From Dictyostelium discoideum (Eukaryota), in assembly GCA_000004695.1 (NCBI GenBank), contig CM000152.2:4192001-4256000 (forward strand): a DNA stretch of 64,000 nucleotides, in the 5' to 3' direction. The notes under the pieces were generated by a model, which saw nothing but the letters and a program-made list of their open reading frames with translations, was not told the DNA's origin and ran no database searches. Within the stretch, counting starts at the first letter, position 1, and every line of letters starts with the position of its first letter. Shown here one piece after another: positions 2,901 through 63,794 of this stretch. The position numbers were made by a program, and so were the translations under genes.

Positions 2901-7620
<4,720 letters not shown>

Positions 7621-28017: not shown

Positions 28018-34569
<6,552 letters not shown>

Positions 34570-39556: not shown

Positions 39557-39653
<97 letters not shown>

Positions 39654-39920: not shown

Positions 39921-39979
<59 letters not shown>

Positions 39980-41157: not shown

Positions 41158-41211
<54 letters not shown>

Positions 41212-41727
41212 TTTAATAACTATAATAATAATTTCAATAATTATAATAATGGTAACTATGTTGGTTATAACCAACAGTATGGTAACCAAAACTTTAATAG
41301 CAATATGTATGGATTTTATAATGGAAATAATAACATTAATAATTATCCATATGGAAATAATTATAATAATTATGATCATCATAGAAATAATATGTACAAT
41401 AGTAATTATAACAATAGTTATAATAATAATAATAATTTTAATAATTTTAATAAAAATTTTAATGGTTGTGGTGGTTTTGATGATAGAATGAGAAACAATG
41501 ATAGATATAGAGATTTAGAACCTAATAATAATAATAATAATTTTCAACAAACATTACCAACAACAAATTTAAATAAAAATATAATATCACCACCAAAACC
41601 ACCAAAATCGTCAACTATTTCAAATGTAACTACGTCAGTGGTAGTATTAAATCAACCAACTCCTATATCACCACCGCCATCACAAAATGAAGCTGTTGAT
41701 ATGGATACTGAAGATGGGGAATTGTAA
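39396..41727 (+). CDS. CCHC zinc-knuckle protein with a coiled-coil N-terminus, Pro-rich and Ser/Thr-rich segments and a long Asn/Tyr-rich prion-like region. Probably 3 exons: 39396..39908, 40022..40454, 40576..41727.
   Basis: Exon 1 ends ga|GTATGT (39909); its intron holds an (AAATAAAT)n tract and ends in (A)nCAG at 40021. Exon 2 is open in frame from 40023 and contains the knuckle CFNCSQKGHSVNDCP (C-x2-C-x4-H-x4-C). A candidate donor CAA|GTATTA at 40455 and acceptor GAAAAG at 40575 are phase-compatible with the ORF that runs from 40531 into ORF 40696..41727 (QQQQQQQQQPHDLPPPPPPSSPPPP...STSTSTSTS...NNYNNGNYVGYNQQYGNQNF...DMDTEDGEL-stop). The third junction is the least certain. Confidence 0.45.
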
Positions 41728-41859
41728 ATAAAATTTAAAATTTAAAATTTAAAATAATTTAGTTTCTTTTTATTGTTTTTATTGTTTTTAAATCTTTTTT
41801 AATTTTAAAATTTTGTGTTATTGTTTTATTGTTTTATTGTTTATGTTTTAAATCTTGAA

Positions 41860-41960
41860 AACCAGTATCAAAACAATGTAAATAAGAGAATTACCAGCAA
41901 GTATCCAAACTATTACTTGCTTTAATACGTTTATAACCAATGACCCAGGGTGAAGATATT
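41860..41960 (-). pseudogene. Decayed duplicate of the 3' end of the Nudix gene (the true copy is at 42818..42920).
   Basis: 41860-41960 (aaaccagtatcaaaacaatgtaaataagagaattaccagcaagta...ctttaatacgtttataaccaatgacc) aligns by eye, with many substitutions, to 42818-42920 (aaatcagtatcagaaccatgataaacaaaagaattaccagcacgta...tttcatacctttataaccattgaaac). It has no open frame. Confidence 0.55.
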
Positions 41961-42569
41961 TTTCACAAACTGTAATTCGTGAAGTTTGGGAAGAGCAGAT
42001 ACTCATACTGAGTTTGTTAGCATTCATTAGAAAATGTGGTGTCCATTTACAAGTTGAATCTGTTAAAGTTTCCAAATTATTAGATGATGAATTTCTCAAC
42101 CTCAAAAACATTGACCAAAATGAAATATTATATTACATATATATCAAATATAATTGTAATGGTTGTTCAGGAAATATCACAATATCTATTTTCGACCTCC
42201 TTTATTATCAAAGCTAAATGTCCAAAATGTGCAAGAAAAAGAGGAGAACATCAAATGATTTAAACAAATACCACTTGAAGAACATAAGTCCAATAGATCT
42301 TCAAGAACATCAAATATCATGGAGCACCATTAAAAGCAATAATATCATGAAAACGGATGATGGCCAACAACTTTTAAATTTTGTAATGGCAATCAAAGTG
42401 TATATTAAGAGATACATTGGATTCTATTGAAAACAAATATGCCATTTATAATAAAACAAACAAATGAATTGGCAACCTTTTTATTTGATAATCCATTGGG
42501 AAGAATAAGCCATATCTTATTAAATGACCATTTTATTTTTCAATTAAATGACGTTGAAAGAGTTACTAC

Positions 42570-42800
42570 TAAATAATTTAATTCAAATTTAAATAAAAAT
42601 ATAATACCACCAAAAACCACAAACTATTTCAAATGTAACTAACTACAACTAAATCCTATATCACCATCATCATCATCATCATAATCACAAAATGAAGCTG
42701 TACAGAAGATGGAAAATTGTAAATAAAATTTAAATTTTAAAATCTAAAATCTAAAATAATTTATTTTTGTTTTATTGTTTTTATTGTTTTTATTGTTTTT
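42570..42800 (+). pseudogene. Decayed duplicate of the last coding segment and 3' UTR of the zinc-knuckle gene (the true copy is at 41551..41860).
   Basis: aatttaaataaaaatataataccaccaaaaaccacaaactatttcaaatgtaacta...tcaccatcatcatca..cacaaaatgaagctgt..gaagatgg..aattgtaaataaaatttaaa repeats 41575-41760 with indels and loses the reading frame. The same ttattgtttttattgtttt tail follows both copies. Confidence 0.55.
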
Positions 42801-43929
42801 ATTGTTTTAAATCTTCAAAATCAGTATCAGAACCATGATAAACAAAAGAATTACCAGCACGTAAACTATTGGCGACAGCACTTGCTTTCATACCTTTATA
42901 ACCATTGAAACAATAATCATAAGCTAATCTTGAAACTGATTTTTGAAGTGGGAATGGTGTTTCGATCTCTGTGAATTCTTTTACAGGTGCCCATTTACAT
43001 TGAGCGATTTCAGATGGATCACTATTGATTTCACTTGACAACGGCTTAAGAGCACAGATAAAATATATGTCACCTCTGTTAAAGGCATAGTTGTGCAACT
43101 GACGAAGGCCAAGAATGCTCACAAACTCAGTACGAATACCTGTCTCTTCCCAAACTTCACGAACTGCAGTCTCGCAAATATCTTCACCTGGGTCGTTGGC
43201 TCCACCTGGTATCTTCCATTTATCAGGTCTTTGCTTCTCAGTGATCAATAGAATTTCATTACGGTCATTAATTACAACACCACCACAACCAATGAAATGA
43301 GAGGTATAGTGTGGTAATTTATTTGGTTCCCCGATTGGTAGCCATTTAGTCAACATTATGTAATTGGATTGGCAATGATGAAATGAGAATCCATTCTCTA
43401 CCAATGTTGGAATTAATATTGAATTAGTTTCTGGTATCTCTATCCAAATGCCTCTACGTTTATTCTCTGTCCAAAATTGTAAACTATTTTTAATGATTTC
43501 TTTAAATTTACTAACACTATCTTCCCCACTACCCTTTGGGTATTGTGTTGTATCTTTAACAATAATACCATCGAAAATATCTGGAATACCAGCTAATATA
43601 CCCTTTTCTATTAATTTAGGATCATTATATTTTTCATTTAATTCTATTTTCTTATTATCTAATAATTTACTACTTTCACTCATATTTTTTGTAATTTTTA
43701 ATAAATTTGTTTTTGTTGTTGTTGTTGTTGTTGTTATTGGTTTTGAACAAAAATATCGAATATTATTATTATTACAATTTAATTTAAATTTACTATTATT
43801 ATTTTTATTATTATTATTATTTTTATTATTTTTATTAATAGTATTTATGTTATTACAATTTATTTTTTTATTTATATTGTATTTATTTATAATATTTCTA
43901 AAAATTAAAAATGAAAATTGCGATTTCAT
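42799..43929 (-). CDS. Nudix hydrolase (NUDT6/GFG-like) with an Asn/Lys-rich N-terminal extension.
   Basis: Nudix box GGVVINDRNEILLITEKQRPDKWKIPGGANDPGEDICETAVREVWEETGIRTEF (G-x5-E-x7-REVxEExGI). Continuous 376-aa ORF; the actual start may be the internal Met MSESSKLLDNKK. Confidence 0.7.
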   Translation of the reverse strand: MKSQFSFLIFRNIINKYNINKKINCNNINTINKNNKNNNNNKNNNSKFKLNCNNNNIRYFCSKPITTTTTTTKTNLLKITKNMSESSKLLDNKKIELNEKYNDPKLIEKGILAGIPDIFDGIIVKDTTQYPKGSGEDSVSKFKEIIKNSLQFWTENKRRGIWIEIPETNSILIPTLVENGFSFHHCQSNYIMLTKWLPIGEPNKLPHYTSHFIGCGGVVINDRNEILLITEKQRPDKWKIPGGANDPGEDICETAVREVWEETGIRTEFVSILGLRQLHNYAFNRGDIYFICALKPLSSEINSDPSEIAQCKWAPVKEFTEIETPFPLQKSVSRLAYDYCFNGYKGMKASAVANSLRAGNSFVYHGSDTDFEDLKQ

Positions 43930-44245
43930 GAAGATTTATATAATTTTGAAAAAAATAAAAAAAAAAAAAAAGAAAAAAAAAATAAAAATTAAAAATAAAA
44001 AAAAATTAAAAAAAAATTAAATTCATAGAAAAATGGGATTTAAATTGATTCTGTTTATTTTTTTTTTATAATTATTTTTTTTAAAATTCTAAATATAAGT
44101 TATTATTGGTATTAATATTATTATTTTTAATTTTTTATTTTTTATATTTTTTTTATTTTTTATTTTTTTTCTAGAGTCACTAAATTCCCACCATCTAACT
44201 TTCTAGAATCATTAAGAATAAATTATTAAATATTAAAATTCATAC

Positions 44246-44277
<32 letters not shown>

Positions 44278-44632
44278 AATTTGATTATAAGGATTGGTTA
44301 AATTCCCTTTAATTAATAAATTATTGGAATTTAAAAATAATTAACCACCATTTGAAATAAATTTTTAATTTTATGTTTTTTTTTTTCATTTTTTTTTTTT
44401 ATTTTTTTTAAATTTTTTTAATTAATTGGTAAGATTTAATTTTATAATCACGAAAACTATCTAATTATTTAGTAATTACTATTGTGTGGGTATGTTTAAA
44501 TTTTTAATTATGATAATTGGATTAAAAAAAAAATAAAAAAATAAAAAAATAAAAAAAAATAAAAGGAAAAAAAAAAAAAAATAAAATAAAATAAAAAAAA
44601 AAAAAAATAAGGTTGTTTGATCAAAAAATGAA

Positions 44633-44664
<32 letters not shown>

Positions 44665-45186
44665 TTTATTAATTTTTAAAAATTTACAACCACATTTAAC
44701 TTTTTATCATTTTTTTTTTTTTTCTTTTTAAAAAACTATATCTCTGTAAATAAAATTTTCACACACACACTCACTCTAACCGTATACCCTTAAAAAGAAA
44801 AAATTAAAAAAAACAATAAAAAAAAATCATATGGTACAATAAAATATCACTCAATTAAAAGAAAACTAATAACTATATATAAACTATAGCTAAAATAAAA
44901 TAAAATAAAATAAATAAAAAAATAATAAATAGTTAAAATAATAAGGAAAATGATTATGAATCAATTGTAAGACTTTTCAACTTTTTTTTTTTTCCTTTAT
45001 CTTCATTATTTTTATTATTATTATCATTATCATTATTATACTAATTTAAATAAACCTATTTATTGTATAATATAATAATAATAATAATTTTATAGTAATT
45101 ATACATGTAATGTTATAAATCAATTTAAAAAGACAGTTTTAAAGACAGAACAAGATTTTATTGGAGCACCAAATGGAATTATCAAT

Positions 45187-45984
45187 GTGAATGAAAATAA
45201 TTTAGATTCTCCAACATTACCAAAGAATTATCATTTACAATCACCAACTAAATTACCTTATAGTGCATATATTGCTAATCATAATAATAATAATTCAAAT
45301 AATAATTCAAATAATACTAATAATTCAAATAATAATAATAATAATAGTTCAAATAATTTTAATATTAATGGAGTATCATCACTTTCACCAATACTATCAC
45401 CAACATCTATAAATAATACAAATTCACCACTATTAACTAGTGTTAATGGAGGAAATACCGGTAGTGGATTATCAGTTAAACTTAATTTATCAAATAATAA
45501 AAAATCAACCATTTATATATTAGTAAACATTGCAATATGCACTATAAGTAATTGTCATGATTCTATCATTATATTAGGACCATGTATTGATTTCATAGAG
45601 TTATCAGATTGTTCAAAATTAACAATCATTTCAATTACAAAATCAATAAGGATAAAGTATGTTTTTAAATGTATATATATATACACACACACACACACAC
45701 TAAAAATAAATTTACTAATTTTATATATTTATTTTTTAGATCATCAAATAATATTTCATTATATATTTGTTGTAATCAAAAACCTATAATAGCTTCAGAT
45801 TGTATTGCTATTAAACTTGCACCATATAATACACATTATCCAAATTTAGAGCAACAATTAATTACATCAAAACTATCAACAACTTTATCAAATAATTGTT
45901 GGAATACACCTATAATTTTAAATTCATTTTCACCTTTAAATTCTCCAAATATTACCAATACCGATACCAACACGAATAATAATA

Positions 45985-46021
<37 letters not shown>

Positions 46022-46077
46022 TAATGGTATTTATTTAACTATACCACCAAAACTACCTTTAGAACCTTTAGATAGTA

Positions 46078-46120
<43 letters not shown>

Positions 46121-46575
46121 TAATGAAGATAATATTGAAAATTGTGATAATGATAATGATAATGAAAATGAAAATGAAATTAAAGATGAAAAAATAATAT
46201 CAAATATTTATTCAATATTAGATGCAGAAGAGTTCTTTCCATTCACTGTACCATTTTTAATTAAAGGTAAAACAAAAAATAATCCTTGCGAATTACCTTT
46301 AAATTATGTAAAATGTTTAGCTTCAAAAACAAATTCTGTTCATTCATTACATAAATTAATTCAACAAACTACAAATGATCCAAAAACAAAAGCAACTTTA
46401 TTACATTTAATTGAATCTAAATTTCAGGTATGTATTTAAAATAAAATAAATAAATAATTGAAATTTTATTAATATTTCTTTTTTTAATTTTTAATTTTTA
46501 TTATTATTATAGGAATGGTTGGTTGAAACTGATAATATAAGGCAAATAAATGATTTAATTAATATGAAAAGATAA
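45187..46575 (+). CDS. TBCC/C-CAP domain protein (tubulin-folding cofactor C / RP2-like beta-helix), 3 exons: 45187..45656, 45740..46427, 46513..46575.
   Basis: Exon 1 ends aa|GTATGT (45657); its intron contains (CA)8 and ends in TTTTTTAG (45739). Exon 2 ends CAG|GTATGT (46428), and the next acceptor is TATTATAG at 46512. Exon 3 encodes EWLVETDNIRQINDLINMKR-stop. The domain signature spans the first splice: ..TIYILVNIAICTISNCHDSIIILGPCIDFIELSDCSKLTIISITKSIRIK-SSNNISLYICCNQKPIIASDCIAIKLAPYN. Overlapping ORFs 45187..45789 and 45669..46439 are the unspliced versions. Confidence 0.6.
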
Positions 46576-46956
46576 AGTTTAAAAAATAGACTATGAATGT
46601 ATATATAAATAGATTTTATTTAATTATATTAAATTATTAAATCAAAAAAAAAATAAAAATAAAAATAAAAAAAAATAAAATAAATGGAAAAACTTTAATA
46701 TTTAAAAAAAAAATCACTCATTCTTTTTATATTAAAAAAAAAAAAAACAATAGTTGGATTATTATTTTAGGATATTCCCAAAATAACTCATTTTTTCACT
46801 TTTTATTTTTTTTTTTTTTTTTATTTTTTTTTTTTTTAATATCAATTCAACTGACGTAGTGTTTTTTTTTTTTTTTTTTTCTTTTTCTTAAGTTTTAAAA
46901 CTACAATGATATTAAAATAATAATAATTTTAAAGTTAATATAGAAATTGAAATACT

Positions 46957-46991
<35 letters not shown>

Positions 46992-47017
46992 TTTTCATAT
47001 AATTTAAAAAAAGAACA

Positions 47018-48493
47018 ATGATTAGAGATAAATCATCAATCTATTTTCAATGTAGAGAAGAAGCAAAAATTATTAAAAAAGAAACAGATAAAAAAGAATT
47101 TTTAACATTTATGTCAGAAAGGTCATATAATAATAATCAACCTTCACAAATTCCATCTTCATCACCATCATCCTTATCATTTCCAAATATTTTCTTTAAT
47201 AAATCCTCTAATAATAATAATAATAATAATAATTATAATTTTAAAACATCGACATCAACATCACCATCAACATCATCATTTATACCATCACAACAACCAC
47301 GTGAAAAATTAGTAAATAAACCATACTGTTTTAATTGTGGTAAAGAGTTTGGAATATTTACATCAAAGATATCATGTGATTTATGTAATATTAATTTTTG
47401 TGTACCATGTATTAAAAAGATATCAAGTAAAGATATAACAGGTGTACTAAGAGAAGGACAAGTTAAAAACTATTGTCCTAAATGTGTATTTATAGTAACT
47501 CGTGAAGAAACATCTAGAAAATTTTCATTTTATTGTGAAAAAGCTTTACAAGATCCAATTTATTTAATTTTTAATGAAATCACTTTAGTTAGAAAATCAA
47601 TTTCTGGTTGTTTACCAAAGTATGTTAAAATATATTATTATTATTATTTAATAATAATAATAATAATAACACACAAACATTAATTAATTTTTTATTTTTT
47701 TATTTATTTTTGTCCAATAGTTTTGAATATTTAGCAGAATCAATTACAAATTTTAATAATGCATCAGCAAAAAATAGAGAAACATTTTTACAAGTTTATA
47801 ATGAAGTAATAACTTTACAAAATGATTTATCAGTTTTATTTAAAGATTTTGATAAAAATTTAAAACTTATTTCATCTTGTGGTGGTCCTTCAATAACTAA
47901 AAACCAAGATAAAGTTAAATTAAATATGAAATCAACATATATTTCATTTTTACAACAAAATTTACCAAAATTTAAAACTATTCAAAATGTATGTATTTAT
48001 TAATAATAATTATTATTTTTAATTTAATTTTTATTTTATTAATTTTTTTTTTCTCCTTGATTATAAGCAATTATTACATTTAGAAATGAATACTTGTACA
48101 AATACATATATTTTTTTAAGTAGAATATCATTAGATAATAGATTGAATAGAGAATTTTGGCAAAAATATGGTAATGCATTTCAAAATACAATTAGTATAG
48201 TTAAACAAGATTTATTTAATGCTACTATAAAATGTGGTGAAAATTGGGATAAACAGAAATCTATAATTGATGATCTAATAGTTTCAGAGGAGAAATCTGA
48301 TTTAAATCTATTTGTACCTCCAAATAAAGAGATTGAAAGCACTCTATTAAGAAAGAATATAGAATTTTTATCAAAAATTTTGGATCAAATTAATGTTAGG
48401 GTTAAACCTGATGAATTAATAAATTCAAAGGATTCAATCAAACAATTACGTGATAATTTATCAATTGTTCATAAACAAGGTTTAGTCTTTTAA
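47018..48493 (+). CDS. FYVE-like/8-Cys cross-brace zinc-finger protein with a C-terminal coiled-coil-like region, 3 exons: 47018..47619, 47721..47988, 48068..48493.
   Basis: The cysteine pattern is CFNCGKEF-x-CDLCNINFCVPC-x-CPKC, i.e. C-x2-C-x12-C-x2-C-x4-C-x2-C-x21-C-x2-C. Donors aa|GTATGT (47620) and AAT|GTATGT (47989) and acceptors CAATAG (47720) and TATAAG (48067) are all phase-compatible. They link ORFs 47018.., 47710.. and 48086.. into one frame. Confidence 0.55.
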
Positions 48494-48787
48494 TAATAAA
48501 AAAATAAAAAATTTATAATTTTATAAAAAACTACCTATTCGTGGTATATATATATATAACAAATATACTTGTATGTGGTATATTTGAATCATTTAAAGTT
48601 TTTTTTCAATTGGTCAAAAATTAGTTAAACTAATTTAATTATCCATTTTAATTAAAAGGTGGGATCAAGCTCTTTAGTATTTTCTTGGTTTCTACACCAT
48701 AACAATAAAATTTGTTAGAATTTTTTAAATCACCAAAAAAAATTTATCAACTTATTCGGGCAATTACCACAAAATCTCACCAACAAA

Positions 48788-48858
48788 GCGTATGTGGTCT
48801 AGTGGTATGATAGCTGCCTTCCAAGCAGTTGAACCGGGTTCGATTCCCGGCATACGCA
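48788..48858 (+). tRNA. tRNA-Gly (anticodon UCC), 71 nt, no intron.
   Basis: GCGTATGTGGTCTAGTGGTATGATAGCTGCCTTCCAAGCAGTTGAACCGGGTTCGATTCCCGGCATACGCA. It is near-identical to eukaryotic tRNA-Gly-UCC (established sequence family) and has the A and B boxes and the T-loop GGTTCGATTCC. Confidence 0.9.
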
Positions 48859-48905
48859 AATATTTTACAAAAATCAACATTTCCCGAACTTCAGGAATAG
48901 AACAT

Positions 48906-48920
48906 AAGTTCGACTCTTGG
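48906..48920 (+). promoter_or_regulatory. External B-box 48 bp downstream of tRNA-Gly.
   Basis: AAGTTCGACTCTTGG resembles the B-box consensus. The same element is found downstream of the inverted copy (55097..55110 on the minus strand). Confidence 0.5.
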
Positions 48921-48959
48921 GGAATTTCATTATAACTAGGTTCATTTGTGCTTTTTATA

Positions 48960-49982
48960 TGTTCAGTTAAAATTTTAATAAAAGTCTTTAACTACATCTG
49001 AACGAGATATCATCTGAAAGATTGAAATTGTGATTTAAATCTATTCGTAGTTTTTTAAAAGGAGAGGTGGAAAGTAGAGACAGATAAAATAATAATAAAA
49101 ATTCATTCATTTTCTTAAACATAAAATATATCATATTAATTTTATTATTTTATTATTTATCAAGGATTTTACCAATCTCTATCGAGTATGGATTTAAGTT
49201 TGTTTAGTTTGGAAGATGTTGAAAATTAGTATTCAAATTGGGCTAACAGTGCTCTTTGTAGTTGCTAGGGTTAAAGAATTATCCTCAAAGGAATGCAATT
49301 TTTCTCTTAGATTGGTTTATTGGCTGCACACACATCGTTAATATACTCACAATCCCAATAACTCCACAATCCTACAAAGACAAAACCCCTATATACATGA
49401 TCCAGCCGATTTACCATTATATACTCCGGCCCCCAAAACAACCTATAACCGATTACTAATCCTAAATTTACTGGTTATACTTTCATAAATCTATTCAAAA
49501 ACATTCTCAAAATGTAGTAAAACTCATTTCATTCTAGATGCCTACCTATTAACCAACATGACCAACTTTGCCATCTCTACAATGAAGACATGCCCGATCT
49601 ATCTGGTCCCCTCTTCTTAGAGTGACACACGAATATTACAATTCATAAACTTTAAGGAGATTAAAACAGTAATCATTGATCTCACAGACTCATTATTTAT
49701 ACCTTGTATTATAATTATTATGAAACAACCACCTAAAACCATCACAAAAGATAAATTGAAATCAGATTTCATTGTCCATACCCAACCCTTCTATTAAATA
49801 GTGCAAACTACACTAGAATATAAAATAAAAAAATTGAAATTTTCTCTTTCAAAAGATCCAAGTAATTTTAGATATTTTTACCTAAAAAAAAAGATCAAGA
49901 AAATGTCATACCATCTTCAATAACCTATTTAATGATTTAATCAAAAAACAATATTAAAACTGGTAAGAATTGAGTTAATAGT

Positions 49983-50016
<34 letters not shown>

Positions 50017-50041
50017 TTGGTAAAAAAAAAAAAAAAAAAAA
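48960..50041. mobile_element. Candidate 5'-truncated non-LTR retroelement remnant (TRE3-like position), non-coding and GC-richer, ending in a 24-nt poly(A).
   Basis: About 1 kb of ~35-40% GC DNA without any long ORF begins ~100 bp downstream of tRNA-Gly, the characteristic TRE3 insertion distance in Dictyostelium (established knowledge). It ends in (A)24 at 50018-50041. The 14-mer AATATTGGTAAAAA occurs just before and 14 nt after the poly(A). I cannot confirm the element family from memory. Confidence 0.3.
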
Positions 50042-50187
50042 AAAAGTAGTTTAATATTGGTAAAAATGAATAACCAAATGACAATAATAAAGTTACCAAA
50101 TGGTTTTTTTTTTTTTTTTTTTATTTATTTTAGATTTAAAACAAAGGAAAAAAAAAAAAATAATAAAAATAGAAACAAGAATTCTTT

Positions 50188-50220
<33 letters not shown>

Positions 50221-50260
50221 TTAATTTTGGGAAAAAAAAAAATAAAAATAAATCTATGAT

Positions 50261-51201
50261 TTAAATTTCATTATCATAATCATTTTCATCATAATAATCG
50301 TCATCGATTTCATATTCATCATGATCATATTCATCACCGCTTTTTGATTTTCTATTACTTCTATTGAAACCATGATAATCATCGAAATCGTCATAACCTT
50401 CATCATCATCTTCGCTTGATGGATATTCCCTATACCAATTTTCTGAATCTACACTAAAGTCATCTGATAAACCACCATCTAAAATGTCATAAAAATCATC
50501 TTCAGGTGGCAAGGTTACAGTTTCAATTAAATCTGAATGCTCTTCATTTAATCTTAACAATTGTGATTGTTGATCAATTGATGGATTAAAATAATAATAA
50601 TCATAAACATATTTGGTTTCCATTGGTTTACTACTACTATCGTTAGGACCACCCAAATGTTCGTCCAATAATGTTCTATAATTTGAAATTAATTCCTCCT
50701 CTTCCTTTGATAGTGTTGAACCTAATAAATTATTTGGATCCAATATAGTTCTTTCCAATTCAATAACATCATGATCTTGAAATAATTTTCTTTCTTCTTT
50801 ACTAAATAAATTTCTATTTGTATTAATTTGTTTATATCTTGATTCTTTTCTTTTTTTCTATTTAAATAAAATTAAATAAAAAATTAATAAAAAAAAAAAA
50901 AAAAAAAAAAAAAGTATGTTGAATAATAATAAAAATCAAAAAAAAAATACAAACAATTGCTTTTTCTCTTTTGGATTCTAATTGTTTTGGTGAAGATATA
51001 ACACCTTTTTGATTAAACTCTTCAATTCTTTGTTGAAGTTTAGTTAATAATACATTAGTGCCATTTGATGGTACATCGAGTGTTGTAATCAATGTAAATA
51101 ATTTTCTATCCTTTTCTGGTAAATTTGATTTGTTTGGTGTTGTTATTTTATCATTATTATTACTATTATCATTATTATTATTGTTGTTGTTGTTGTTATT
51201 C

Positions 51202-51251
<50 letters not shown>

Positions 51252-51538
51252 ATTGTTATTTTCTTTTGAAGTTTCTATATCATTTGGTAATTTATGATTA
51301 TCATTATCATCATCATTATTTTGAATTCCAAAATCTTTAAATGAATCTAAAAATGCTTTTTTTCTTGGTCTTTCAATAAATATTGATGGTAGTGCATCAT
51401 CATCTATCTTTCTTTTAATCTTTAAAATTACTGGTTTATTTGCTTTATTTATATTTTGTTGTTGTTGCTGTTGTTGAAGTTGTTGTATTTCTTTTTGAAT
51501 TTTTTGTTGTCTTTCTTCATCTTCTTTATCTTTACGAC

Positions 51539-51599
<61 letters not shown>

Positions 51600-51821
51600 G
51601 TTACCATTTATATTATCATTATCATTTCTTGAAGAAATTTCAAATTTTGTTGGATTTAAAACCATTTCTGTTAATAAATCATTATTAATATTATTCTTTG
51701 TTCTTTGTTTTGGTATATTTGGTGTAAATATCTTTTTAGCCGACGATGACTTTTTTTGAGGTGTTATTATTTGATTATCATTTTCTTGTTTATTATTTGC
51801 ATTTATTGTTGAAGATTTCAT
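50261..51821 (-). CDS. Low-complexity Asn/Lys/Gln-rich protein with a very acidic C-terminus (nucleolar-like). Probably 2 exons: 51821..50955 and 50857..50261.
   Basis: ORF 50862..51821 (MKSSTINANNKQENDNQ...) is followed by a candidate unusual donor ATT|GTTTGT (50954) and an A/T intron ending AAATAG (50858). The downstream frame is open from 50857 with no ATG before ...LERTILDPNNLLG..., which argues for a single spliced gene. The C-terminus reads DDDEGYDDFDDYHGF...DEYDHDEYEIDDDYYDENDYDNEI. The GTTTGT donor is atypical, so the junction is uncertain. Confidence 0.45.
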
Positions 51822-52318
51822 AATATAATTTTAATTATTTATTTATTTGAATTTTTATTTACACGTTCGTATGTTCAACAAAATGAAAATAAAAATTAAA
51901 AAATTAAAAAAAAAAATAAAAATAAAAATAAAAATAAAAATAAAAAAATAAAAAAAAAAATTAAAAATTAAAAAAATAAAAAAAAAAATTAATTAAAAAA
52001 TAAAAAAAATTAGATCTATTGTTGTTGTTATTATTATTATAATTAAAATTTCTCAAACGAAGAAAAAAATTAAAAAAAAAAAAAAGACGAGAGGGAGGGA
52101 TATTTAATATAAAAATTAATTAAAAAAAAAATATGAAAAAAAAGAAAAATATAAAAAAAAAATAAAAAAAAAAGTTTTTTTGTTTTAATTTTTTATTTTT
52201 TTATTTTTTTTTTATATCGCACATATAAATATAAAATATAAATTTGTTTATTTCTTCTTCTATTCACTATTTAAAAATAAAAAATAATAATAATAAAAAA
52301 AAAAAAAAAAAAAAGGAA

Positions 52319-52703
52319 ATGGATGACAGTAGTGTATTATTATTAGATGAGGAGTTAAAAAAGATAAATGAAAAGTTTCAAGCAGGTGAAATGAAAGCGT
52401 TTGGTTTAAATCAACAAAAGATTTTAAAAGATTTTCAAGAAATTAGAAAACAACAAGCTCAATTATCGATGAAACAAGTATCAATTGGTTCAGAAAGAAT
52501 AAAAGTACATGATATTGAAAATATTGGTAAAGAAGATGCTGATACTAATATTTATGATTCAATCAAAGAAAAAGAAGAAGATTTAACAAAATTAACTCAA
52601 ACTTTAAATTCAATTTGTAAAAATATGTATGTTATTAATAATATATCATTTTGTTGTTGTTTTTGTTGATGCATTTATTTTATTTTATTTATTTAATAAC
52701 TAA

Positions 52704-52738
<35 letters not shown>

Positions 52739-52805
52739 AAGTGAAATAACAAACCAATTAGCAAGCCAAAGTGGAAATAAAAATAAAAATCATAATAATA
52801 TTTAA
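52319..52805 (+). CDS. Small coiled-coil protein (~124 aa), 2 exons: 52319..52626 and 52742..52805.
   Basis: ATG at 52319 (MDDSSVLLLDEELKKINEKFQAGEMKAFGLNQQKILKDFQEIRKQQAQL...). The donor at|GTATGT (52627), the TAACTAAC motif and the acceptor (T)n(A)9G at 52741 give ..SICKN-I-EITNQLASQSGNKNKNHNNI-stop. The hydrophobic CCCFC tail of the unspliced ORF is intronic. Confidence 0.5.
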
Positions 52806-53221
52806 ATTTGGTAGAAAAAAAAAAAAATAGTTTACAGAAAACAAGGTTTAATAAGAAAAAAAATTAATCTCAAGGATTCAAGAAATATTTTTTTTTGGTC
52901 GCAGTTATAACGATTCTTTTTTTTTTTTAGCGCCTCAAAAAAAAAGATTGCCCCAAAGTTCTAAGAAAAAAAAAAATTATTCAAAATAAAATATTATTTT
53001 TTTTTTTCAATTTTTTTTTTTTTTTTTTTGATTTGGCTGTCATTTTTTTTATAAATAAAATTGGTTTCCTTTTTTTCTTTTACTTTTGTCAATACAATTA
53101 TTATTCTAAACAAATTTTTATATATCTTTTGAAAAAAAAAAAAAATAAAAAAAAGAAAAGAAAAAAAAGAAAAATAAAAAAAAGAAAAAAAAAAACATTT
53201 TTTACATATATATATTTAAAA

Positions 53222-54856
53222 ATGGCTACAGATTATTCAAATATGTCATATTCTCAACTTCAAGGTTTAGCAAAGTCAAATGGTATAAAAGCAAATGGTA
53301 AAAAAGATGAACTCATTGAAAGATTAGAGAAATATGATTCAGAAAGTAAAACAACAACAACTACTACCACCACCACCACTACAAGTTCAACAACATCAAA
53401 GAGAAAGAAAAGAGATGAATCAGAGCCAGAAGAAGATAGTGAAGATGAAGAGATTGAAAAGCCAGTAGCACCAGTTAAAAGAGCACCATCCAAGAAATCA
53501 GCAGCAATTAATAATAAAAAGCGTAGAGCTGAAGAAGAAGAAGAAAAAGAAGAAGAAGGAGAAGAAAAAGAAGATGATGATAATGATGATCATATTATTT
53601 TACCACAAGCCACAGTCACTACTACTACTACAAGTTCAACATCAAATGGAGCACAAATTAAAAAAGTTGGACCATTTGATAAATGTGAAGATGATATTGG
53701 TAAATGGATTAGAGATGAATCTGTTTCTTATTACCTTGGCGAAGTTTTATCAAGATCAAAGATTGCATCATTTGATATGGATAGTACAATGATTAAGAAT
53801 AAATCTGGTAAAGTTCATGCAATAAATAAGGACGATTGGTTATGGTGGGATGAATGTGTTCCAAAGAATCTTAAACAACTTTACAATGATGGTTATCAAG
53901 TTGTTATCTTTACAAATCAAGGTGGTATTGGTCATGGCTCTAAATTTTGTAGAACAAAATTCAATGATATCACAAAGAAGATTGAAATCCTCGAGAAAGA
54001 ATTAGGTTTCCCATTGATTGCATTCATTGCTTGTGCCGATGATGCCAATAGAAAACCAAATAGAAAGATGTGGGACATGATGTACGAGTGTACCGATGGC
54101 AAAGTTGTAATCAACGAAAGTGAATCATTCTATTGTGGTGATGCTGCAGGTCGTCCAGATGGTTGGAAAGCTGGTGTTAAAAAAGATTTCAGTAATAGTG
54201 ATTTAGGTTTCGCCATGACAGTTGGTATTCGTTTTGAAACTCCTGAAACTCATTTCCTTGGTGAAAGTCATTTTGTTTTAGCAGGTGGTGATGATATTGT
54301 CAACTCATTAATTCCAAGTGCTCCAACAAGTGGTAAAAGTTTTGAAAGCGATTCAATCGTCACAAAAGATTTTGAAATGGTTATTTCCGTTGGTTATCCA
54401 GCCGCTGGTAAATCAACTTTTGCTAGAAAATATTTTGGTCCAGCTGGTTATGCAATCATTAATCAAGACACTTTGAAAGATAAAGCCCAATGTTTAAAAG
54501 CTGCCAACGCTGCCCTCGCTCAAGGTAAATCTGTTATCATTGATAATACGAATCCCACTAAAGATGTTCGTGCTGAATACCTTGCTTTAGCTAAAAAATA
54601 CAATGCCAAAGCTCGTTGTTTAAACTTTACAACCTCATTCGATTTAGCTATGCATCTCAACTATTACCGTGAAAGAAAAGATGGTGTCAAACATATCCCA
54701 AGTATAGGTTACTTTACATTTAGAAAGAAATATCAAGAACCAAATACAAGTGAAGGTTTTGTTTCTGTTCATCAAATTAATTTTATACTTGACTTAGATG
54801 ATAAAAATAAATCAATGTACTTTATTCCAAATCCAAAAGCTAAAGCTAAAAAATAA
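53222..54856 (+). CDS. Bifunctional polynucleotide kinase/3'-phosphatase (PNKP-like): N-terminal SAP motif, acidic linker, HAD-type 3'-phosphatase domain and a C-terminal P-loop 5'-kinase.
   Basis: ATG at 53222. The SAP-like motif is SYSQLQGLAKSNGIKANGKKDELIERL. The HAD motifs are FDMDSTMI (DxDxT), VVIFTNQGG and CGDAAGR. The Walker A is VISVGYPAAGKSTF, followed by ..VIIDNTNP... Domain order and motifs match the PNKP family (established knowledge). Single exon. Confidence 0.75.
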   Translation: MATDYSNMSYSQLQGLAKSNGIKANGKKDELIERLEKYDSESKTTTTTTTTTTTSSTTSKRKKRDESEPEEDSEDEEIEKPVAPVKRAPSKKSAAINNKKRRAEEEEEKEEEGEEKEDDDNDDHIILPQATVTTTTTSSTSNGAQIKKVGPFDKCEDDIGKWIRDESVSYYLGEVLSRSKIASFDMDSTMIKNKSGKVHAINKDDWLWWDECVPKNLKQLYNDGYQVVIFTNQGGIGHGSKFCRTKFNDITKKIEILEKELGFPLIAFIACADDANRKPNRKMWDMMYECTDGKVVINESESFYCGDAAGRPDGWKAGVKKDFSNSDLGFAMTVGIRFETPETHFLGESHFVLAGGDDIVNSLIPSAPTSGKSFESDSIVTKDFEMVISVGYPAAGKSTFARKYFGPAGYAIINQDTLKDKAQCLKAANAALAQGKSVIIDNTNPTKDVRAEYLALAKKYNAKARCLNFTTSFDLAMHLNYYRERKDGVKHIPSIGYFTFRKKYQEPNTSEGFVSVHQINFILDLDDKNKSMYFIPNPKAKAKK

Positions 54857-55159
54857 AATAAAATAAAATAAAATAATAAAAAAAAAATTTGTAATTTAGA
54901 ATTCAATTTTCCTTTAAATTTGTTTTAATCATAATTAATTTTAAAATATAGTGCAGTAATTGTTATAATTTTTTTTTTTTTAAAAAATCAAATAATAAGA
55001 TTGTAATTGATTAGATGAATTGGTAAAAGGAGATAAGATTAGAAAGCACTGATTCTAGAACACAGTACTTTGCAAGTTATATTTATGTTAACTGGACAAG
55101 AGTCGAACTTATGTTCTTTTTCCGGAAGTTCCGAGAATATTGGTTTGTAGAAAAATATA

Positions 55160-55230
55160 TGCGTATGCCGGGAATCGAACCCGGTTCAACTGCTTGGAAG
55201 GCAGCTATCATACCACTAGACCACATACGC
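55160..55230 (-). tRNA. tRNA-Gly (anticodon UCC), second copy in inverted orientation.
   Basis: Exact reverse complement of the 48788..48858 tRNA (TGCGTATGCCGGGAATCGAACCCGGTTCAACTGCTTGGAAGGCAGCTATCATACCACTAGACCACATACGC). Confidence 0.9.
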
Positions 55231-55787
55231 TATGTTGATGAGATTTTGGGGTAAATGCCCGAATAAGTTTTAAAAAAATTATTGATGATTTTGATTGATT
55301 AAATTTTTTTTGGTGATGTAGAAAAATTTTATATTAAAAATTTAGGGGAAATAATAATTTGTTTGATTATGTATTTTTTATCTTACAAATACCAAATTAT
55401 AAAACTCAAACTCCCTTTAAACCAATTTCAATAAAGTACTCAACAAAACTCAATTTGGGTTTTACTTTTTTGACATTTAACCAAAATGAAAATATTTTTT
55501 TTTTTTTCAACTTAAAAAGTCACAACTTTCAATCACGATTTAAATAAATTTAAAAATCCATTTTAATGGTTTGGTTTTTATTTTATTTTTAAAAAAAAAA
55601 AAAAATAAAAAAATAAAAAAAAAAAAAAAAATGGCCAAGAATAATAAATTGGTTTTTTTTTTTGGTTTTTAGATAAACCTTTCAAATAAAATTTAATTAA
55701 ATTTTTTTTTAAAATATTATTGGTCCTGAGGAAACTAATGGAAAAAAAAAAAAAAAAAAAAAATTATCAGTATAATTTATATAAAAC

Positions 55788-58700
55788 ATGATAGAGAAAA
55801 GATCATTTTATTTCTTTTTATTTTTATTTATTTCATTTTTAATTTTTAACACTAATGCATTAGTTTTGTCTCAAAGTGAAAAAAATTGTTTATTATCACT
55901 TAATGGAAAAATTGGGAACACAAATCCAAATAATAATGATGGAGATCTTTGTTCTGAAATTCCTAATATAAAATGTATTGGCGAAAATGTTGTTGAATTA
56001 TCCTTTACTCAAATTAATACAGAAGTTATAAATGCATTAGATTTTAATTGTTTTTCAAGTTTATCAAAAGTGTAGGTTTTTTTTTTAAAAAGAAAAAATA
56101 TTGATTTAAAAAAATGGTATTAATAGTTTTTATTTTTTTTTTTCATATTTTTTTTTGTTTTTTTGTTTTTTTTTTTTTTGTTTTGTTTTTTTTAATTAAA
56201 AAAAAAAAAAAGAACATTAAATAACTTTTTCCTTGCAGAGGATTTCTTAACAAATAATCCCTTTCAAATCAATAATGTATCACTAAGTTTAATTGGTTCG
56301 ACTAGTGGTTTTAAAATTGATAAAATAATTTCATCAAAAATTAGTTATTTAGATATAAACCTAATAACAGAGGACTCAATTTTATTGAGTTATTTTATCA
56401 ATGTCAAAATATTGTAAGTTTTAATATTCAAAAAAAAATAAAAAATAAAAAAAATAAAAAAAAAATTAATTTAAATTATTTTAGAAATATTAAGGGTGCA
56501 ACTGGTCAAATAAATTTTGGAACAGAAACTTCAGATAATGAAGAAATTTATTTAGTTGGTAATAGTATTGCTATTTCATCACCATCAAGAATTGGTCTTT
56601 CAAATTATTCAAAATTAAAAATATTAAATATTGAAACATCAACAGATTTTAAAATTAATGATGGAAATTTTCAATTTATTAATGCACCTAGTTCACTTTA
56701 TAATTTTAAATTAAAAGGGTCAACATTTACAAATTTGGTTTCAGCATTTTCAGTTTTAAATAAAGTTAGTTCGATTGGAATTTCAAATAATTTAATTTCA
56801 ACTACTTTACCAACAACTCATCAATTAACAATTTCTCCATCATTAAATGTTGATTTATCAAATAATCAATTAACTGGTACAATTTCTCAAGATTATTGTT
56901 CAATTTCAAAAATTAATTTTTCATCAAATAAATTAACAGGGTAATTATTTAAAATTAATAATAATAATATAATAAATAATTCTAATTCTAATATATTAAT
57001 TTTTAATTTTATTTTAGAAATATTCCAAATTGTTTTACATGTTTTATGGATAGTGCAATGATTTTAAATTTTAATGGTAATAGTTTTACAGGTTTAAAAG
57101 AAGTAACAACCTATTGTAATGAAATTATACCAAAATTAAGATATGTAAAAGAGAGTAATAAAATTTATTTAGAAGGAACAAATTTAGGATTTAATGAAAA
57201 TATAGTTTCTAATCCAGTATTAACTTGGAAGATGCAAACCCCATCAAGTGTATTTGTTGCAGATACTATTAATAGCTACACAGATTCACAATTATTTACA
57301 GTGAATTTTCCAATTGCAAAAGCTTCATTTACAATTAGATTAGTAGAAGCAACACCAGTCGTTACAAGTATTATTGTATCTGCAAGTAAAGTATTAACAA
57401 TCCAAGGTAGTGATTTTTCAAATCATTTAAGTTTAACAAATGTAAAATTAAAAAAAAAAGGTGCAACCACTGATATAACATGTACAATCAATTCTTCAAG
57501 TTTTAATAAAATTGAATGTACTTGTAGTTCATTAGTATTTAGTTCAACCGATATTTATACATTGACTATAATAACATCTAATCAACTCTCAAAGGAAATT
57601 ACAACAAAATTTTCAGGTGCAACAACTATTTCAAGTTTACCATGTACAAATAATTGTTTCTCAAGAGGTACATGTTTATTTGATGGAACATGTGATTGTA
57701 ATGCTAATTCCACCACAAATAGTGATTGTAGTGAATGTATTTTTAATCATTATGGACCAACTTGTAGTTTAACATGTCCAATTGGTACCAATGGTAAAAT
57801 ATGTAGTGGTTATACATGTTTTACAAACAATGTAACATGTTCATGTATTGAAGATCAAGCCAATGGTAATGCATGTCAAAATAAAGTTTGTCCTAGTGGT
57901 TGTAGTGGTCATGGTACTTGTGATTCTTTAACAGGTGTTTGTTCTTGTTCAAATGGTTTTTATGGTACCGATTGCTCTAAAAAATCTTGTCCTATTGCTC
58001 CTAATGGATATGGATGCAGTGGTAATGTCAATGGAAAATGTAATGATGATGGTACATGTACTTGTAATTCACCATACTTTGGAAAAGATTGTTCATCTAT
58101 TCCATGTCCAGTATCAAATCAAAAGGAATGCGGTGGTAATGGTGCTTGTACATACTCAAATGGTACATGTAAATGTAACCCTGATTTCTATGAAGCTGAT
58201 TGTTCAAAAAAACATTGTCCTGTTGGTCCAAATAAATATGAATGTAGTGGTTATTTAAATGGAATATGTAAAGATAATGGTGCATGTACTTGTATCTCAC
58301 CCTACTATGGAACCAATTGTAGTCTTTCCCCATGTCCAAATTCATGTAGTGGAAATGGTAATTGTAATGGTGAAACTGGTAAATGTACTTGTGCTCATAA
58401 TTTCTATGAAGCAGATTGCTCAAAGAAACATTGCCCTACTGGTACCAATGAATTAGAATGTAGTGGTAATGTAAATGGAATATGTAATAACAATGGTACA
58501 TGTACTTGTAAACCACCCTATTTCGGAAATAATTGTGGCTCTATACCATGTCCAACTTCAAACACTCTATCATGTAGTGGTAATGGTAATTGTAATAATG
58601 TAACTGGTGTATGTAGTTGTAACAAAGATTTCTATCAATCCGATTGCTCAAAGAAACATTGCCCCGTTGGTGCCAATGGATTTGAATGTAGTGGTTATTT

Positions 58701-60597
58701 AAATGGAATATGTAATGACAATGGTGAATGTTCTTGTATTCCACCCTATTATGAAAAAGATTGTGGATATATACTTTGTCCAATTTCCAACTCTCTATCA
58801 TGTGGTGGTAATGGTAATTGTAATAATTTAACTGGTGTATGTAGTTGTAACACTGATTACTACGAATCAGATTGTTCAAAAAAACGTTGTCCCACTGGTT
58901 CAAATGGATTTGAATGTAGTGGTAATACCAATGGAAGATGTGATTCTGAAAGTGGTGAATGTGAATGTAATTCTGATCGTCAAGGTATCGATTGTGGTAC
59001 TGGTTTTCGTCAATGCCCAATCTATCAAGATCAATTATGTAATGGTAAATCATGTAATAATCAAACGGGTATATGTTCATGTGATCCAGGTGTGACGTTA
59101 CCAGATTGTAGTGGTGTTGCTTGTCCATCAACTTGTTCCAATGGTGCATATTGTGATATTTCAATTGGTCATTGTAAATGTGGACCCAGTTGGACTGGTA
59201 GTGATTGTAATGTACCACTTCATTATATTACCTCAATTGAACCATGTTCTACCAAAGGCGGTAAAGTTACATTCTATGGTTGGTTTGGTGATATTCACAA
59301 TTTAATTTCAATTAGTATTGGTGGTACAAGATGTACTAATATTGTAGAAACCAATCAAACGATTACATGTGAAATTGGAGCTGGTACAGGTTTAAAAGAT
59401 GTTCTTTTACTTCAAAATGGTGTTAGTGTTTTATCAAAGAATTCATTTAGATATTTAAATACTGAAGAATCAATATCATGTTTAAATGATTGTTCTGATA
59501 ATGGTGAATGCTCAACAACTTATGGTATTTGTAAATGTAAAATTGAAAAAATTGGATTTGATTGTTCAGCTAGAAAACCTCAAGATTTAATAACTCCATC
59601 ACCAACTCCATCAATATCTTCTTCTTCATCATCCTCTGATAATTCAACTTTAGAAATTGTACCAATTTCAATAACAAATATTGATTTCAAAAATGGAGAA
59701 ATTTTAATATCAAATGAAGATACTTCATTTACAATTTTATTAGATTCATTGGTTGAATTAGATTATAATGGTGATGTAGTTAAAACTACAATACTTAGAA
59801 ATAAATGGATTGGTTCTCAAGATCCTAATACTGAAAAATATAGTTTCTCACAATCAGTTTCTACTTTTAATGGAATATCAGGTAAAATTCAATTCGATGT
59901 AGAAGTTGTAAAAGATGATATTAAACAATATCAATTTGCAGGTTTAAATTTACCACTCGATAAAGATGGTATTGAAATCGTTGTAAATATTACAAATTAT
60001 CAATTCCTAAGTGGATTAAATACTTTACAATTGCGTTTCAATTCATTTGCCAATGAAATTGTTATTAAAGATAGTGATGACGATGATGAAGATTCCGATA
60101 GTTCAACAATAAATTATGATAATGGATGTAATGAAAGAGAAGCTGAAATTGATACAAAAAATATTGACCCTTCAAAAACTTTAAACTATATTTCAATTAA
60201 AAAGAATTCAAAGGTACTCTTTGGTAGATTCATTAATATTGCCATCTCTGATTCAAGACAAACTTTTATTACAAGTGAAATTATTGAAGAAAATACAAAT
60301 TCTTCAGCTATTACAATTGGTATTAATTTACCTCATTGTGTTGATTCATGTTTTATAGATCCTCAATTCACACTCTCACCAGATTATTCAACTTATAAAT
60401 TCTCATGTGTCGTTATAATTGTACCTCCTTCCAGAGTTTGGATAATTGTAATTGTTGTGGTTATACCTACCATTATTGCTTCGGTTGCTCTTTATTTTGG
60501 TATTAGATATTATAAAAAAAATAGATATTCAATTAGACTATATACTATGAAAAAATCAAGTGCTATTAAAAAGAAAATTACATTAAAAAAAAGTTAA
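55788..60597 (+). CDS. Giant (~1496 aa) type-I membrane protein: signal peptide, leucine-rich repeats, ~14 EGF/tenascin-like Cys-rich modules, TM helix and a short Lys-rich tail. 4 exons: 55788..56069, 56241..56413, 56485..56940, 57018..60597.
   Basis: ATG at 55788 (MIEKRSFYFFLFLFISFLIFNTNA). The only frame-compatible first donor is the unusual AAA|GTGTAG at 56070, paired with the acceptor GCAGAG at 56240. The remaining junctions are tt|GTAAGT (56414)/TTTTAG (56484) and gg|GTAATT (56941)/TTTTAG (57017); all keep one frame into ORF 57046..60597. LRR motifs include LSNNQLTGTISQDYCSISKINFSSNKLTG-NIPNCF. The repeated module is C..G.NG.C....G.C.C...Y.G.DCS. The TM helix is VWIIVIVVVIPTIIASVALYFGI. 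Confidence 0.6.
57900..58990 (+). repeat. Coding tandem repeat: ~240-bp units, each encoding two EGF-like modules, about 4-5 imperfect copies.
   Basis: Phrases recur at ~240-bp spacing, e.g. gattgctcaaagaaacattgcc...gaatgtagtggttatttaaatggaatatgta and ..ccatgtccaa..tcatgtagtggtaatggtaattgtaat.. near 58200, 58440, 58680 and 58900. The alternative-frame ORFs 57935.., 58097.., 58259.., 58541.. and 58835.. are by-products. Confidence 0.7.
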
Positions 60598-63131: not shown

Positions 63132-63794
63132 AAAATATTTTATATATTATATTGTATGTATGTATGTGTTTATATATGTATGAATAAAACTATTTATTAT
63201 TTATTATTATTTTTTATTTTTTATTTTTTTTTTTTTATTTTTTTTTTATTTTTTTTTTTTATTTTTTTTTTTTATTTTTTTTTTTTTTATTATTATTTTT
63301 AATTATTTATAAATAAATAGTATTGTTGAGGTTTCGTATTTTTATAATAAATGTTGTTATTTGATAAAATGAGATGTTTGTTGTTGATAAATGTGGATAG
63401 AGGGGAAATAAAAAATAAAAAATAAAAAATAAAAAAATAAAAAATAAAAAAAAAAAAAAAAATAAAAAAAAAATAAAAAATAAAAATTAAAAAATAAAAA
63501 AAACAATACCAAAAAAGAAAAAAAAAAACTAAAAAAAAAAACAGTTTATGATTCATGGTGCAAATTGTTTTGATGAAATTAACAAAAATATGATCAATTA
63601 ATTTTATTATAATTTTTGAAAAATCTAAATAATATAAAAAAAAAAAATTATATTAAATTTTAACAATTACTACCTATTTGTTCTTCAATGAACTAAATAG
63701 TTTTATATGTATTTGTACAAATTATTTTATACCTTTTTTTTATATTTTTATTTCCTTTTTTTTTTTTTTTTTTTTCACCTATAAATGAATAAAC

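Follow-up and report, generated by a model that had tools for sequence, protein, structure and literature searches.

Inversion of a three-gene segment between convergent tRNA-Gly(UCC) genes in Dictyostelium discoideum, probably by recombination between the tRNA units

We describe here a pair of identical tRNA-Gly(UCC) genes, each embedded in one arm of an inverted repeat, that encloses three protein-coding genes in Dictyostelium discoideum, and we show that the enclosed segment lies inverted in this species relative to its closest relatives. The window, by which we mean the whole stretch of 64,000 nucleotides that was analysed, comprises positions 4,192,001 to 4,256,000 of the forward strand of contig CM000152.2 (assembly GCA_000004695.1). 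A single reciprocal homologous crossover between the two inverted tRNA-Gly units, on the branch that leads to D. discoideum sensu stricto (s.s.), is very probably what flipped the intervening 6.2 kb. A first-pass annotation of the window had suggested that inverted repeats around unique genes could mediate inversion of the segment between them. Comparison with related genomes bears this out: the block is flipped relative to five sister lineages or species, and its junctions are reciprocal chimeras. The data record a past inversion that is now fixed; they do not demonstrate a switch that still operates.

The comparison set the window beside L001, L002 and L008 (all D. discoideum s.s.), L007 (D. 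cf. discoideum), L003 and L009 (D. citrinum), L004 (D. dimigraforme), L005 (D. firmibasis) and D. purpureum, nine related assemblies in all. The contigs of the relatives were found through a search with PNKP, one of the enclosed genes, which brought up its orthologues in D. citrinum, D. dimigraforme, D. firmibasis and D. purpureum; with the cluster members added, three further discoideum-clade PNKP variants were obtained. The two genes immediately outside the block, geneB on the left and a ComC-like gene on the right, served as the fixed reference. In the window, L001, L002 and L008 the order is geneB (+), then the block of acidic gene (-), CCDC28-domain gene (+) and PNKP (+), then ComC (+). 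In L007, L003, L009, L004 and L005 the three-gene block runs the other way with respect to geneB and ComC. The same is evident in DNA alignments, where window positions 39316-48569 align with L007 on the minus strand, 50198-54908 on the plus strand and 55097-60157 again on the minus strand; the interior is likewise flipped against L003, L004 and L005. A convergent tRNA-Gly(UCC) pair occupies both block boundaries in the window, L001, L002, L008, L007, L003, L009 and L005, and all tRNA-Gly copies at the locus score 65-68 bits across the assemblies. D. purpureum keeps the three-gene block between other flanks and has no tRNA there, which made it unusable as an outgroup for polarity.

Neighbor-joining trees built from 3807 gap-free columns of the interior and 3203 of the left flank grouped AX4 with L001 and L002 with L008, united these two pairs, and then added L007 and the two D. 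citrinum assemblies in turn, with D. dimigraforme and D. firmibasis outside; bootstrap support was 100% at every node of the discoideum clade. The PNKP protein tree agrees with these locus trees, and the discoideum and citrinum clades of the species tree published with the assemblies are consistent with the same topology (PMC12745789). All five other assemblies share one orientation, so one inversion, on the branch leading to D. discoideum s.s., accounts for the whole distribution. This event is bracketed by a divergence of approximately 3.6-4.3% to L007 and of approximately 2.3-3.0% within D. discoideum s.s. The comparison of orientations that had been proposed in the annotation thus yields a difference between lineages but no polymorphism among the D. 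discoideum s.s. assemblies, four of four of which carry one orientation, albeit in a small sample. L002 and L008 differ from the AX4-type window by ~2.3-3% over gap-free positions (~10% when indels are counted) and L007 differs by ~4%. These divergences fit the suggestion of the source paper, which treats some 'discoideum' isolates as possible cryptic species (PMC12745789).

The two tRNA-Gly genes are identical over 71 of 71 nucleotides, and both ARAGORN and Rfam (RF00005) recover them at exactly the coordinates first assigned to them. Neither copy is scored as a pseudogene: each reaches 68 bits in Rfam against a gathering score of 29, and ARAGORN reads both as Gly(tcc). They are separated by 6301 bp. 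The first-pass annotation had them facing away from each other, which is wrong; with the left copy on the plus strand and the right copy on the minus strand the pair is convergent, the 5' flanks pointing outward and the 3' ends, together with the external B (ex-B) boxes, pointing toward the enclosed block. Within each gene we read an A-box-like TGGTCTAGTGG and an internal B box GGTTCGATTCC, the presumed promoter elements, and a run of four or five T residues, a likely terminator for RNA polymerase III (Pol III), lies no more than 10 nt past each 3' end. The ex-B box GTTCGACTC is found at +50 to +58 of both copies on the same strand as the tRNA and fits the consensus GTTCRAnYC, a motif that 66% of D. 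discoideum tRNA genes carry ~41 bp past their end (PMC3159450). It had been placed ~45 bp downstream; the box is indeed present, and the measured distance is 50 nt from each tRNA end. Both copies are probably functional, ordinary Pol III units that are both expressed, and TFIIIC probably binds at the ex-B boxes.

Between each tRNA gene and its ex-B box, approximately at +25 to +33, lies a further motif, CCGAACTTC/CGGAACTTC (48883-48891 and 55127-55135). Its position is kept in all 12 arms of L002, L003, L007, L008 and L009, and both arms retain it throughout the discoideum and citrinum clades, including D. citrinum, in which the ex-B box itself is decayed. In D. discoideum the motif is the inverted complement of the AAGTTCG that opens the ex-B box.

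The duplicated unit exceeds the length of the tRNA itself, as had been claimed, and totals ~205-235 bp. In a gapped blastn alignment 48689-48919 pairs with 55324-55097 at 84% identity over 233 columns, and within it a strong core (48749-48919 against 55269-55097) is 90.8% identical. Besides the 71-nt gene, the arms have in common 61 nt on the 3' side, a stretch that ends in the ex-B box, and on the 5' side 38 nt of flank plus a displaced block of 32 nt farther out. The significance of similarity outside the gene was assessed by dinucleotide-shuffle tests with 500 shuffles per part. None of the 500 reached the observed score for the proximal 5' flank (-1 to -38), for the 3' flank (+1 to +61) or for the 32-nt distal 5' block (48716-48746 against 55300-55331), which an indel of ~30 nt has shifted between the arms; past +62 no similarity was found, the score there being reached in 200 of 500 shuffles. 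Flank identity is therefore not limited to the tRNA body. Of the ~110-bp 5' flank that was said to be the same in both units, the sharing stands and the extent does not, since only the proximal 38 nt (~89% identical) and the displaced block are well kept. The 3' flank, too, is shared as stated but is ~76-82% identical rather than the same.

The junctions could be read with the aid of L007, the closest uninverted relative. The ComC-side arm of D. discoideum is colinear with the ComC-side arm of L007 from -438 into the tRNA, and from +186 to +354 it matches instead the geneB-side arm of L007 at 95-97%. Conversely, the geneB-side arm of D. discoideum matches the geneB-side arm of L007 at 81% from -288 to -219 (in L002 and L008 at 96% around -280 to -255), and from +226 to +318 it matches the ComC-side arm of L007 at 87-95%. 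Interior-type sequence begins directly past each ex-B box, where TTGGCTAACTT is common to the arms L002_G, L008_G and L007_C, and TTGTCC(A)GTTAAC is common to AX4_C and L007_G. Furthermore, window positions 48859-50260 are colinear with the ComC-side interior of L007 and show zero match to its geneB-side interior. Since both D. discoideum arms are reciprocal chimeras, the exchange point falls within the repeat, in the stretch from about -42 to +57 of the tRNA, as a reciprocal homologous crossover of the inverted tRNA units would leave it. Breakpoint mapping against the short intergenic flanks of D. citrinum returned A/T-rich noise and no clear orthology.

The arms evolve in concert by gene conversion. 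Within a genome the two 38-nt proximal 5' flanks differ by a distance of only 0.08-0.10 in AX4, L008 and L007, whereas the orthologous flanks of AX4 and L007 differ by 0.23; this contrast between paralogues and orthologues is clear only with L007 and L008 and did not stand out from AX4 and L002 alone. Substitutions peculiar to a lineage recur in the two arms of a genome: for example, a T-to-A change at -13, which turns AAAATCTC into AAAAACTC, is present in both arms of L002 and both arms of L008 and nowhere else. The arms of D. citrinum are unrelated in the proximal 5' flank (0.44-0.62). Homology between arms extends over 233-257 alignment columns in the discoideum clade, as against 122 in D. 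citrinum and 146 in D. firmibasis, and the greater length in the discoideum clade is attributable to gene conversion.

Taken together, these observations are best accommodated by a sequence of events that starts from a tRNA pair already sitting at both syntenic positions when D. firmibasis split off. Gene conversion keeps the units alike in the discoideum clade, where they have about 170-230 bp of homology in common, and a crossover between about -42 and +57 of the tRNA inverted the 6.2 kb between them. The inversion is younger than the split from D. cf. discoideum and older than the divergence of the sampled D. discoideum strains, and the new orientation is now fixed in four of four. Homologous recombination, rather than another repair route, probably made the crossover. 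Several observations weigh against this account or blunt it. D. dimigraforme has the ancestral orientation with a tRNA at neither boundary, as judged by ARAGORN, Rfam and blastn, so the tRNA pair is not indispensable. Only one inversion event is seen, with no polymorphism in D. discoideum s.s., and recurrent flipping is undemonstrated. AX4 and L007 align poorly over the distal 5' flank of the geneB-side arm (z about 0, with only a 70-nt match). Finally, the repeat core has been made uniform by concerted evolution, which limits the placement of the crossover to ~100 bp; it may have fallen either within the 71-nt tRNA body or in the sequence right beside it.

Other routes to the same arrangement have to be weighed against a homologous crossover. 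Fork pausing at Pol III complexes might have made the tRNA genes fragile, so that two double-strand breaks were followed by end joining and the homology of the repeats was irrelevant. Both breakpoints do lie at tRNA genes, and such genes (tDNAs) are hotspots of double-strand breaks and rearrangement in yeast (PMC7990762). We nevertheless regard this as improbable: two-break end joining would seldom keep both units in register, whereas after the event both tRNA genes and their flanks are intact and seamless (68 bits each), the products are exact in-register reciprocal chimeras with no indels at the junctions, and concerted evolution is an independent sign that the arms recombine. It is also conceivable that the tRNAs were bystanders which attracted copies of the retroelement TRE3, and that two inverted TRE3 copies downstream of them recombined. 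TRE3 integrates ~100 bp downstream of tRNA genes (PMC5006619), and a pair of copies would offer a substrate with homology on the kilobase scale. Indeed, D. firmibasis carries a full-length TRE3-like element 62 nt past the ComC-side tRNA and a remnant past the other tRNA, and TRE3 remnants occur in D. citrinum and, putatively, in D. discoideum as well. However, the switch from flank to interior falls at about +58 in both arms, directly past the ex-B box and not further inside; L007 has no remnant resembling TRE3 open reading frame 2 (ORF2) in either interval; D. discoideum has no TRE3 remnant on the PNKP side; and the remnants of D. discoideum and D. citrinum are independent insertions, because they are 49% identical to one another while that of D. 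discoideum is 59% identical to the D. firmibasis element. An origin through TRE3 is thus most unlikely.

A different possibility is that the pair delimits a segment which actively flips, by polymorphism or by programme, in present D. discoideum populations. The arms do retain a perfect core of 71 nt and about 90% identity over 170 bp, and gene conversion has continued since AX4 split from L002 and L008, as the change from AAAATCTC to AAAAACTC attests. Against this, the uniform orientation of the D. discoideum s.s. assemblies and the five uninverted ones fit a single event on the tree, and the block holds no recombinase gene, only the acidic, CCDC28 and PNKP genes being called in it, so that active flipping seems very unlikely. 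That the inversion is an artefact of assembly, by collapse or mis-joining at the inverted repeat, deserves mention because assemblers can be misled by such repeats, but its probability is practically negligible. The repeat of ~200 bp is far below the length of long reads, the four D. discoideum assemblies agree with one another, as do the five of the other lineages, all of them being independent, and the assemblies were structurally validated according to the paper that produced them (PMC12745789).

When two homologous copies in inverted orientation cross over, the DNA between them is flipped and the repeats stay where they are, as is familiar from inverted low-copy repeats and from the flip-flop of the plastid inverted repeat. 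The mechanism that we favor, a homologous crossover between the tRNA units, is the same as in non-allelic homologous recombination between inverted repeats generally. The locus differs in that its substrate is very short (a 71-nt perfect core within about 170-230 bp) and in that it records a single fixed event with no equilibrium of isomers. The mechanism is therefore not new, and the locus is an unusually well resolved case of a tRNA-flanked inversion. A repeat of ~200 bp with a 71-nt perfect core sufficed to turn around a block of three protein-coding genes. Two very close lineages bracket the event in time, and its junctions are legible almost to the nucleotide. In addition, the inversion provides a simple, discrete marker that separates D. 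discoideum s.s. from the cryptic sister lineage represented by L007.

In the account that PMC7990762 gives of Kellis 2003, the inversions among Saccharomyces sensu stricto species are all flanked by oppositely oriented tDNAs. The present case resembles these in having tRNA genes in opposite orientation on both sides and in being an evolutionary event found by comparing close species, the Dictyostelium pair consisting of the same isoacceptor with identical sequence. It differs in belonging to the Amoebozoa, in its junctions resolved as reciprocal chimeras, in its Dictyostelium-specific ex-B boxes and concerted arms, and in having no long terminal repeat or Ty element. The observation made in yeast is thereby extended to Amoebozoa, and concerted evolution of the tRNA flanks is shown.

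Paired tRNA genes of the same anticodon are, as the annotation had noted, a known feature of Dictyostelium: pairs and triplets of this kind were described in the D. discoideum genome paper, as cited in PMC8163159. The genes described here conform to that pattern, being identical, with the same anticodon and 6.3 kb apart. As relayed there, the pattern is treated only as one of distribution, while here it is associated with a rearrangement; our literature searches found no published Dictyostelium rearrangement or inversion mediated by a tRNA pair. Such pairs accordingly pass from a descriptive oddity to a demonstrated agent of structural change. The unit of tRNA and ex-B box is also known as the target landscape of TRE5, TRE3, DGLT-A and Skipper-2 (PMC3159450, PMC5006619). 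The present units are typical in having a GTTCRAnYC box downstream and TRE3-like insertions or remnants downstream in several species, and they depart from the average in the position of the box, at +50 rather than about +41.

It is tempting to speculate, although we consider it rather doubtful, that inverted pairs of same-anticodon tRNA genes constitute a general and recurrently active recombination module driving many of the micro-inversions that set dictyostelid genomes apart, a module of which this locus would be the first resolved example. Were this so, gene conversion would continue at such pairs with occasional crossovers, and occupancy by Pol III and TFIIIC at the tRNA and the ex-B box might promote exchange. 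Inverted pairs of this kind account for a sizeable fraction of the tRNA genes of Dictyostelium.

The positions of the features discussed are collected in Table 1. Gene models derive from calls on L001, which is 99.76% identical to the window, and from the open reading frames (ORFs) of the window.

Table 1. Features of the inverted segment and its surroundings, in window coordinates.
Feature	Position	Strand	Basis and remarks
geneB, outer left neighbour, 431 aa, no Pfam domain	47018..48493	+	ORFs; gene calls; fixed reference
Left (geneB-side) arm: 5' flank, tRNA, 3' flank	48716..48919	+	Alignments and shuffle tests
tRNA-Gly(UCC), left copy	48788..48858	+	ARAGORN; Rfam tRNA 68 bits
T4 run, likely Pol III terminator	48863..48866	+	Read from sequence, 3' of left tRNA
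ex-B box GTTCGACTC, left	48908..48916	+	50 nt past tRNA end
Segment inverted in D. discoideum s.s.	48920..55096	.	Interior aligns opposite to both flanks
Candidate degenerate TRE3-like non-LTR remnant, boundaries approximate	49143..50045	+	tblastn; GC-richer; no ORF
Acidic/Asn-rich low-complexity gene, 2 exons, about 487 aa, no Pfam domain	50261..51821	-	ORFs; L001 gene call
CCDC28-domain gene, 123 aa, one intron, end approximate	52319..52806	+	PF13270; ORF
PNKP (SAP + PNK3P + AAA_33), 544 aa	53222..54856	+	Gene calls; identity to XP_640898.1
Right (ComC-side) arm	55097..55331	-	Alignments and shuffle tests
ex-B box GTTCGACTC, right	55100..55108	-	50 nt past tRNA end
T5 run, likely Pol III terminator	55151..55155	-	Read from sequence, 3' of right tRNA
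tRNA-Gly(UCC), right copy	55160..55230	-	ARAGORN; Rfam tRNA 68 bits
ComC-like EGF/TEN repeat gene, 1506 aa, outer right neighbour	55788..60597	+	ORFs; gene calls; fixed reference

The acidic low-complexity gene, the small coiled-coil gene (which encodes a CCDC28 domain) and the PNKP gene that the annotation had placed inside the block are as described there. It had also listed a retroelement remnant, the presence of which is plausible but weakly supported, the match at protein level being weak and confined to a short C-terminal motif of ORF2. The stretch 48920-50260 has no ORF and is richer in G+C. On the same strand as the left tRNA, downstream of which the remnant sits in the orientation of that gene, 49527-49616 encodes FHSRCLPIN, the C-terminal zinc-knuckle motif of ORF2. 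In tblastn with the ORF2 of the D. firmibasis TRE3-like element the match spans amino acids 1002-1033 at 50% identity (E=0.003 for the local region, 0.18 for the whole window), and the same search detected no reverse transcriptase (RT) or endonuclease part in the window remnant. The orthologous remnants of L002 and L008 match in the FHSRCLPIN region in the same orientation (E=5e-5 and 1e-4, respectively). A run of 24 A residues at 50022-50045 could be a tail, although such runs are not diagnostic in A/T-rich DNA. Compared with known TRE3 insertions the D. discoideum remnant is highly degenerate, its family assignment coming from the short ORF2 motif.

The core of the remnant (49222-49815) is not present in L007, and the D. 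discoideum-specific core begins ~360 nt past the tRNA. The D. discoideum remnant is truncated at another point on its 5' side than that of D. citrinum, and neither occurs in L007. On these grounds and on the identities of 49% and 59%, the idea that these geneB-side remnants are orthologous, which would place a breakpoint inside the block, was rejected. Likewise, the possibility that the window remnant is a decayed FNIP-repeat gene, such as D. citrinum and D. dimigraforme carry at the corresponding position, was rejected on zero tblastn matches. In tblastx against the loci of the other species only the orthologous copy in L002 matched.

In D. firmibasis (L005, ~917-6256) the TRE3-like non-long terminal repeat (non-LTR) element is apparently intact, with an ORF1 of 413 aa, an ORF2 of 1225 aa containing RVT_1, a poly(A) of ~34 nt and a 10-bp target-site duplication, GATTATCTTT. 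Close to it lie an antisense RT fragment and a second ORF2 remnant; with the intact element, these indicate that at least three insertions have struck this locus. L005 further contains tRNA-like sequences with B-box motifs at ~6270-6345 and 12880-13200, for example GGGGGCTTAGTGTAGTGGTT...GGGATCGAGTCTTGGTCA, including a tandem duplication of ~197 bp upstream of the geneB-side tRNA. These were called by neither ARAGORN nor Rfam and may be tRNA-derived repeats.

In D. dimigraforme a solo B-box GTTCGAATC is present in each boundary interval, at 3746-3754 (+) and 11797-11805 (-) of L004, on the strand where an ex-B box should lie, which points to deletion of both tRNA bodies with their ex-B boxes left behind. 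In L007, 12290-12353 (+) holds a truncated copy of the tRNA unit, consisting of 27 nt of 5' flank and the first 37 nt of tRNA-Gly at 92% identity. Placed head-to-head with the geneB-side tRNA and ~160 bp upstream of it, this third copy of the unit is not found in the window; an aborted or partial recombination may have left it as a footprint. In L003 (5076-7001), L009 (5099-7018) and L004 (4280-6169) the block includes an FNIP-repeat gene (Pfam FNIP, E=1e-119 to 1e-132) beside the ComC-side tRNA or its equivalent position. This gene is missing from D. discoideum and D. firmibasis, where no remnant of it could be detected, and no gene was called at the equivalent position in L007.

The window as a whole has ~22% G+C, with poly-A/T intergenic DNA and ORFs rich in Asn/Gln repeats, and its PNKP protein is identical to XP_640898.1 of D. 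discoideum AX4, which marks the window as AX4-type. The ComC-like gene contains internal tandem repeats at 57901-58969 with a period of ~228 bp, corresponding to EGF/TEN modules that are ~75% identical between units and that give rise to staggered self-alignments. At 33521-33529 an orphan B-box-like GTTCAACTC lies on the minus strand, with no tRNA called there by ARAGORN or Rfam. Approximately 100 nt downstream of it, a 40-nt stretch (33391-33430) shows 85% similarity to 48943-48978, which lies immediately interior to the left arm; the similarity could be due to chance or to a fragment of a common element. A third tRNA gene occupies 2528-2623 (+, 96 nt, 49 bits in Rfam) and was missed by ARAGORN, probably owing to an intron. 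Read by eye, it appears to have a UGC (Ala) anticodon and a G3:U70 pair, and an ex-B core GTTCGACTC lies at 2654-2662, ~31 nt downstream. Cross-matches between L001 and the window also reveal a further set of inverted repeats, ~100 bp long and ~90% identical, at about 63202-63304 and 63407-63508.

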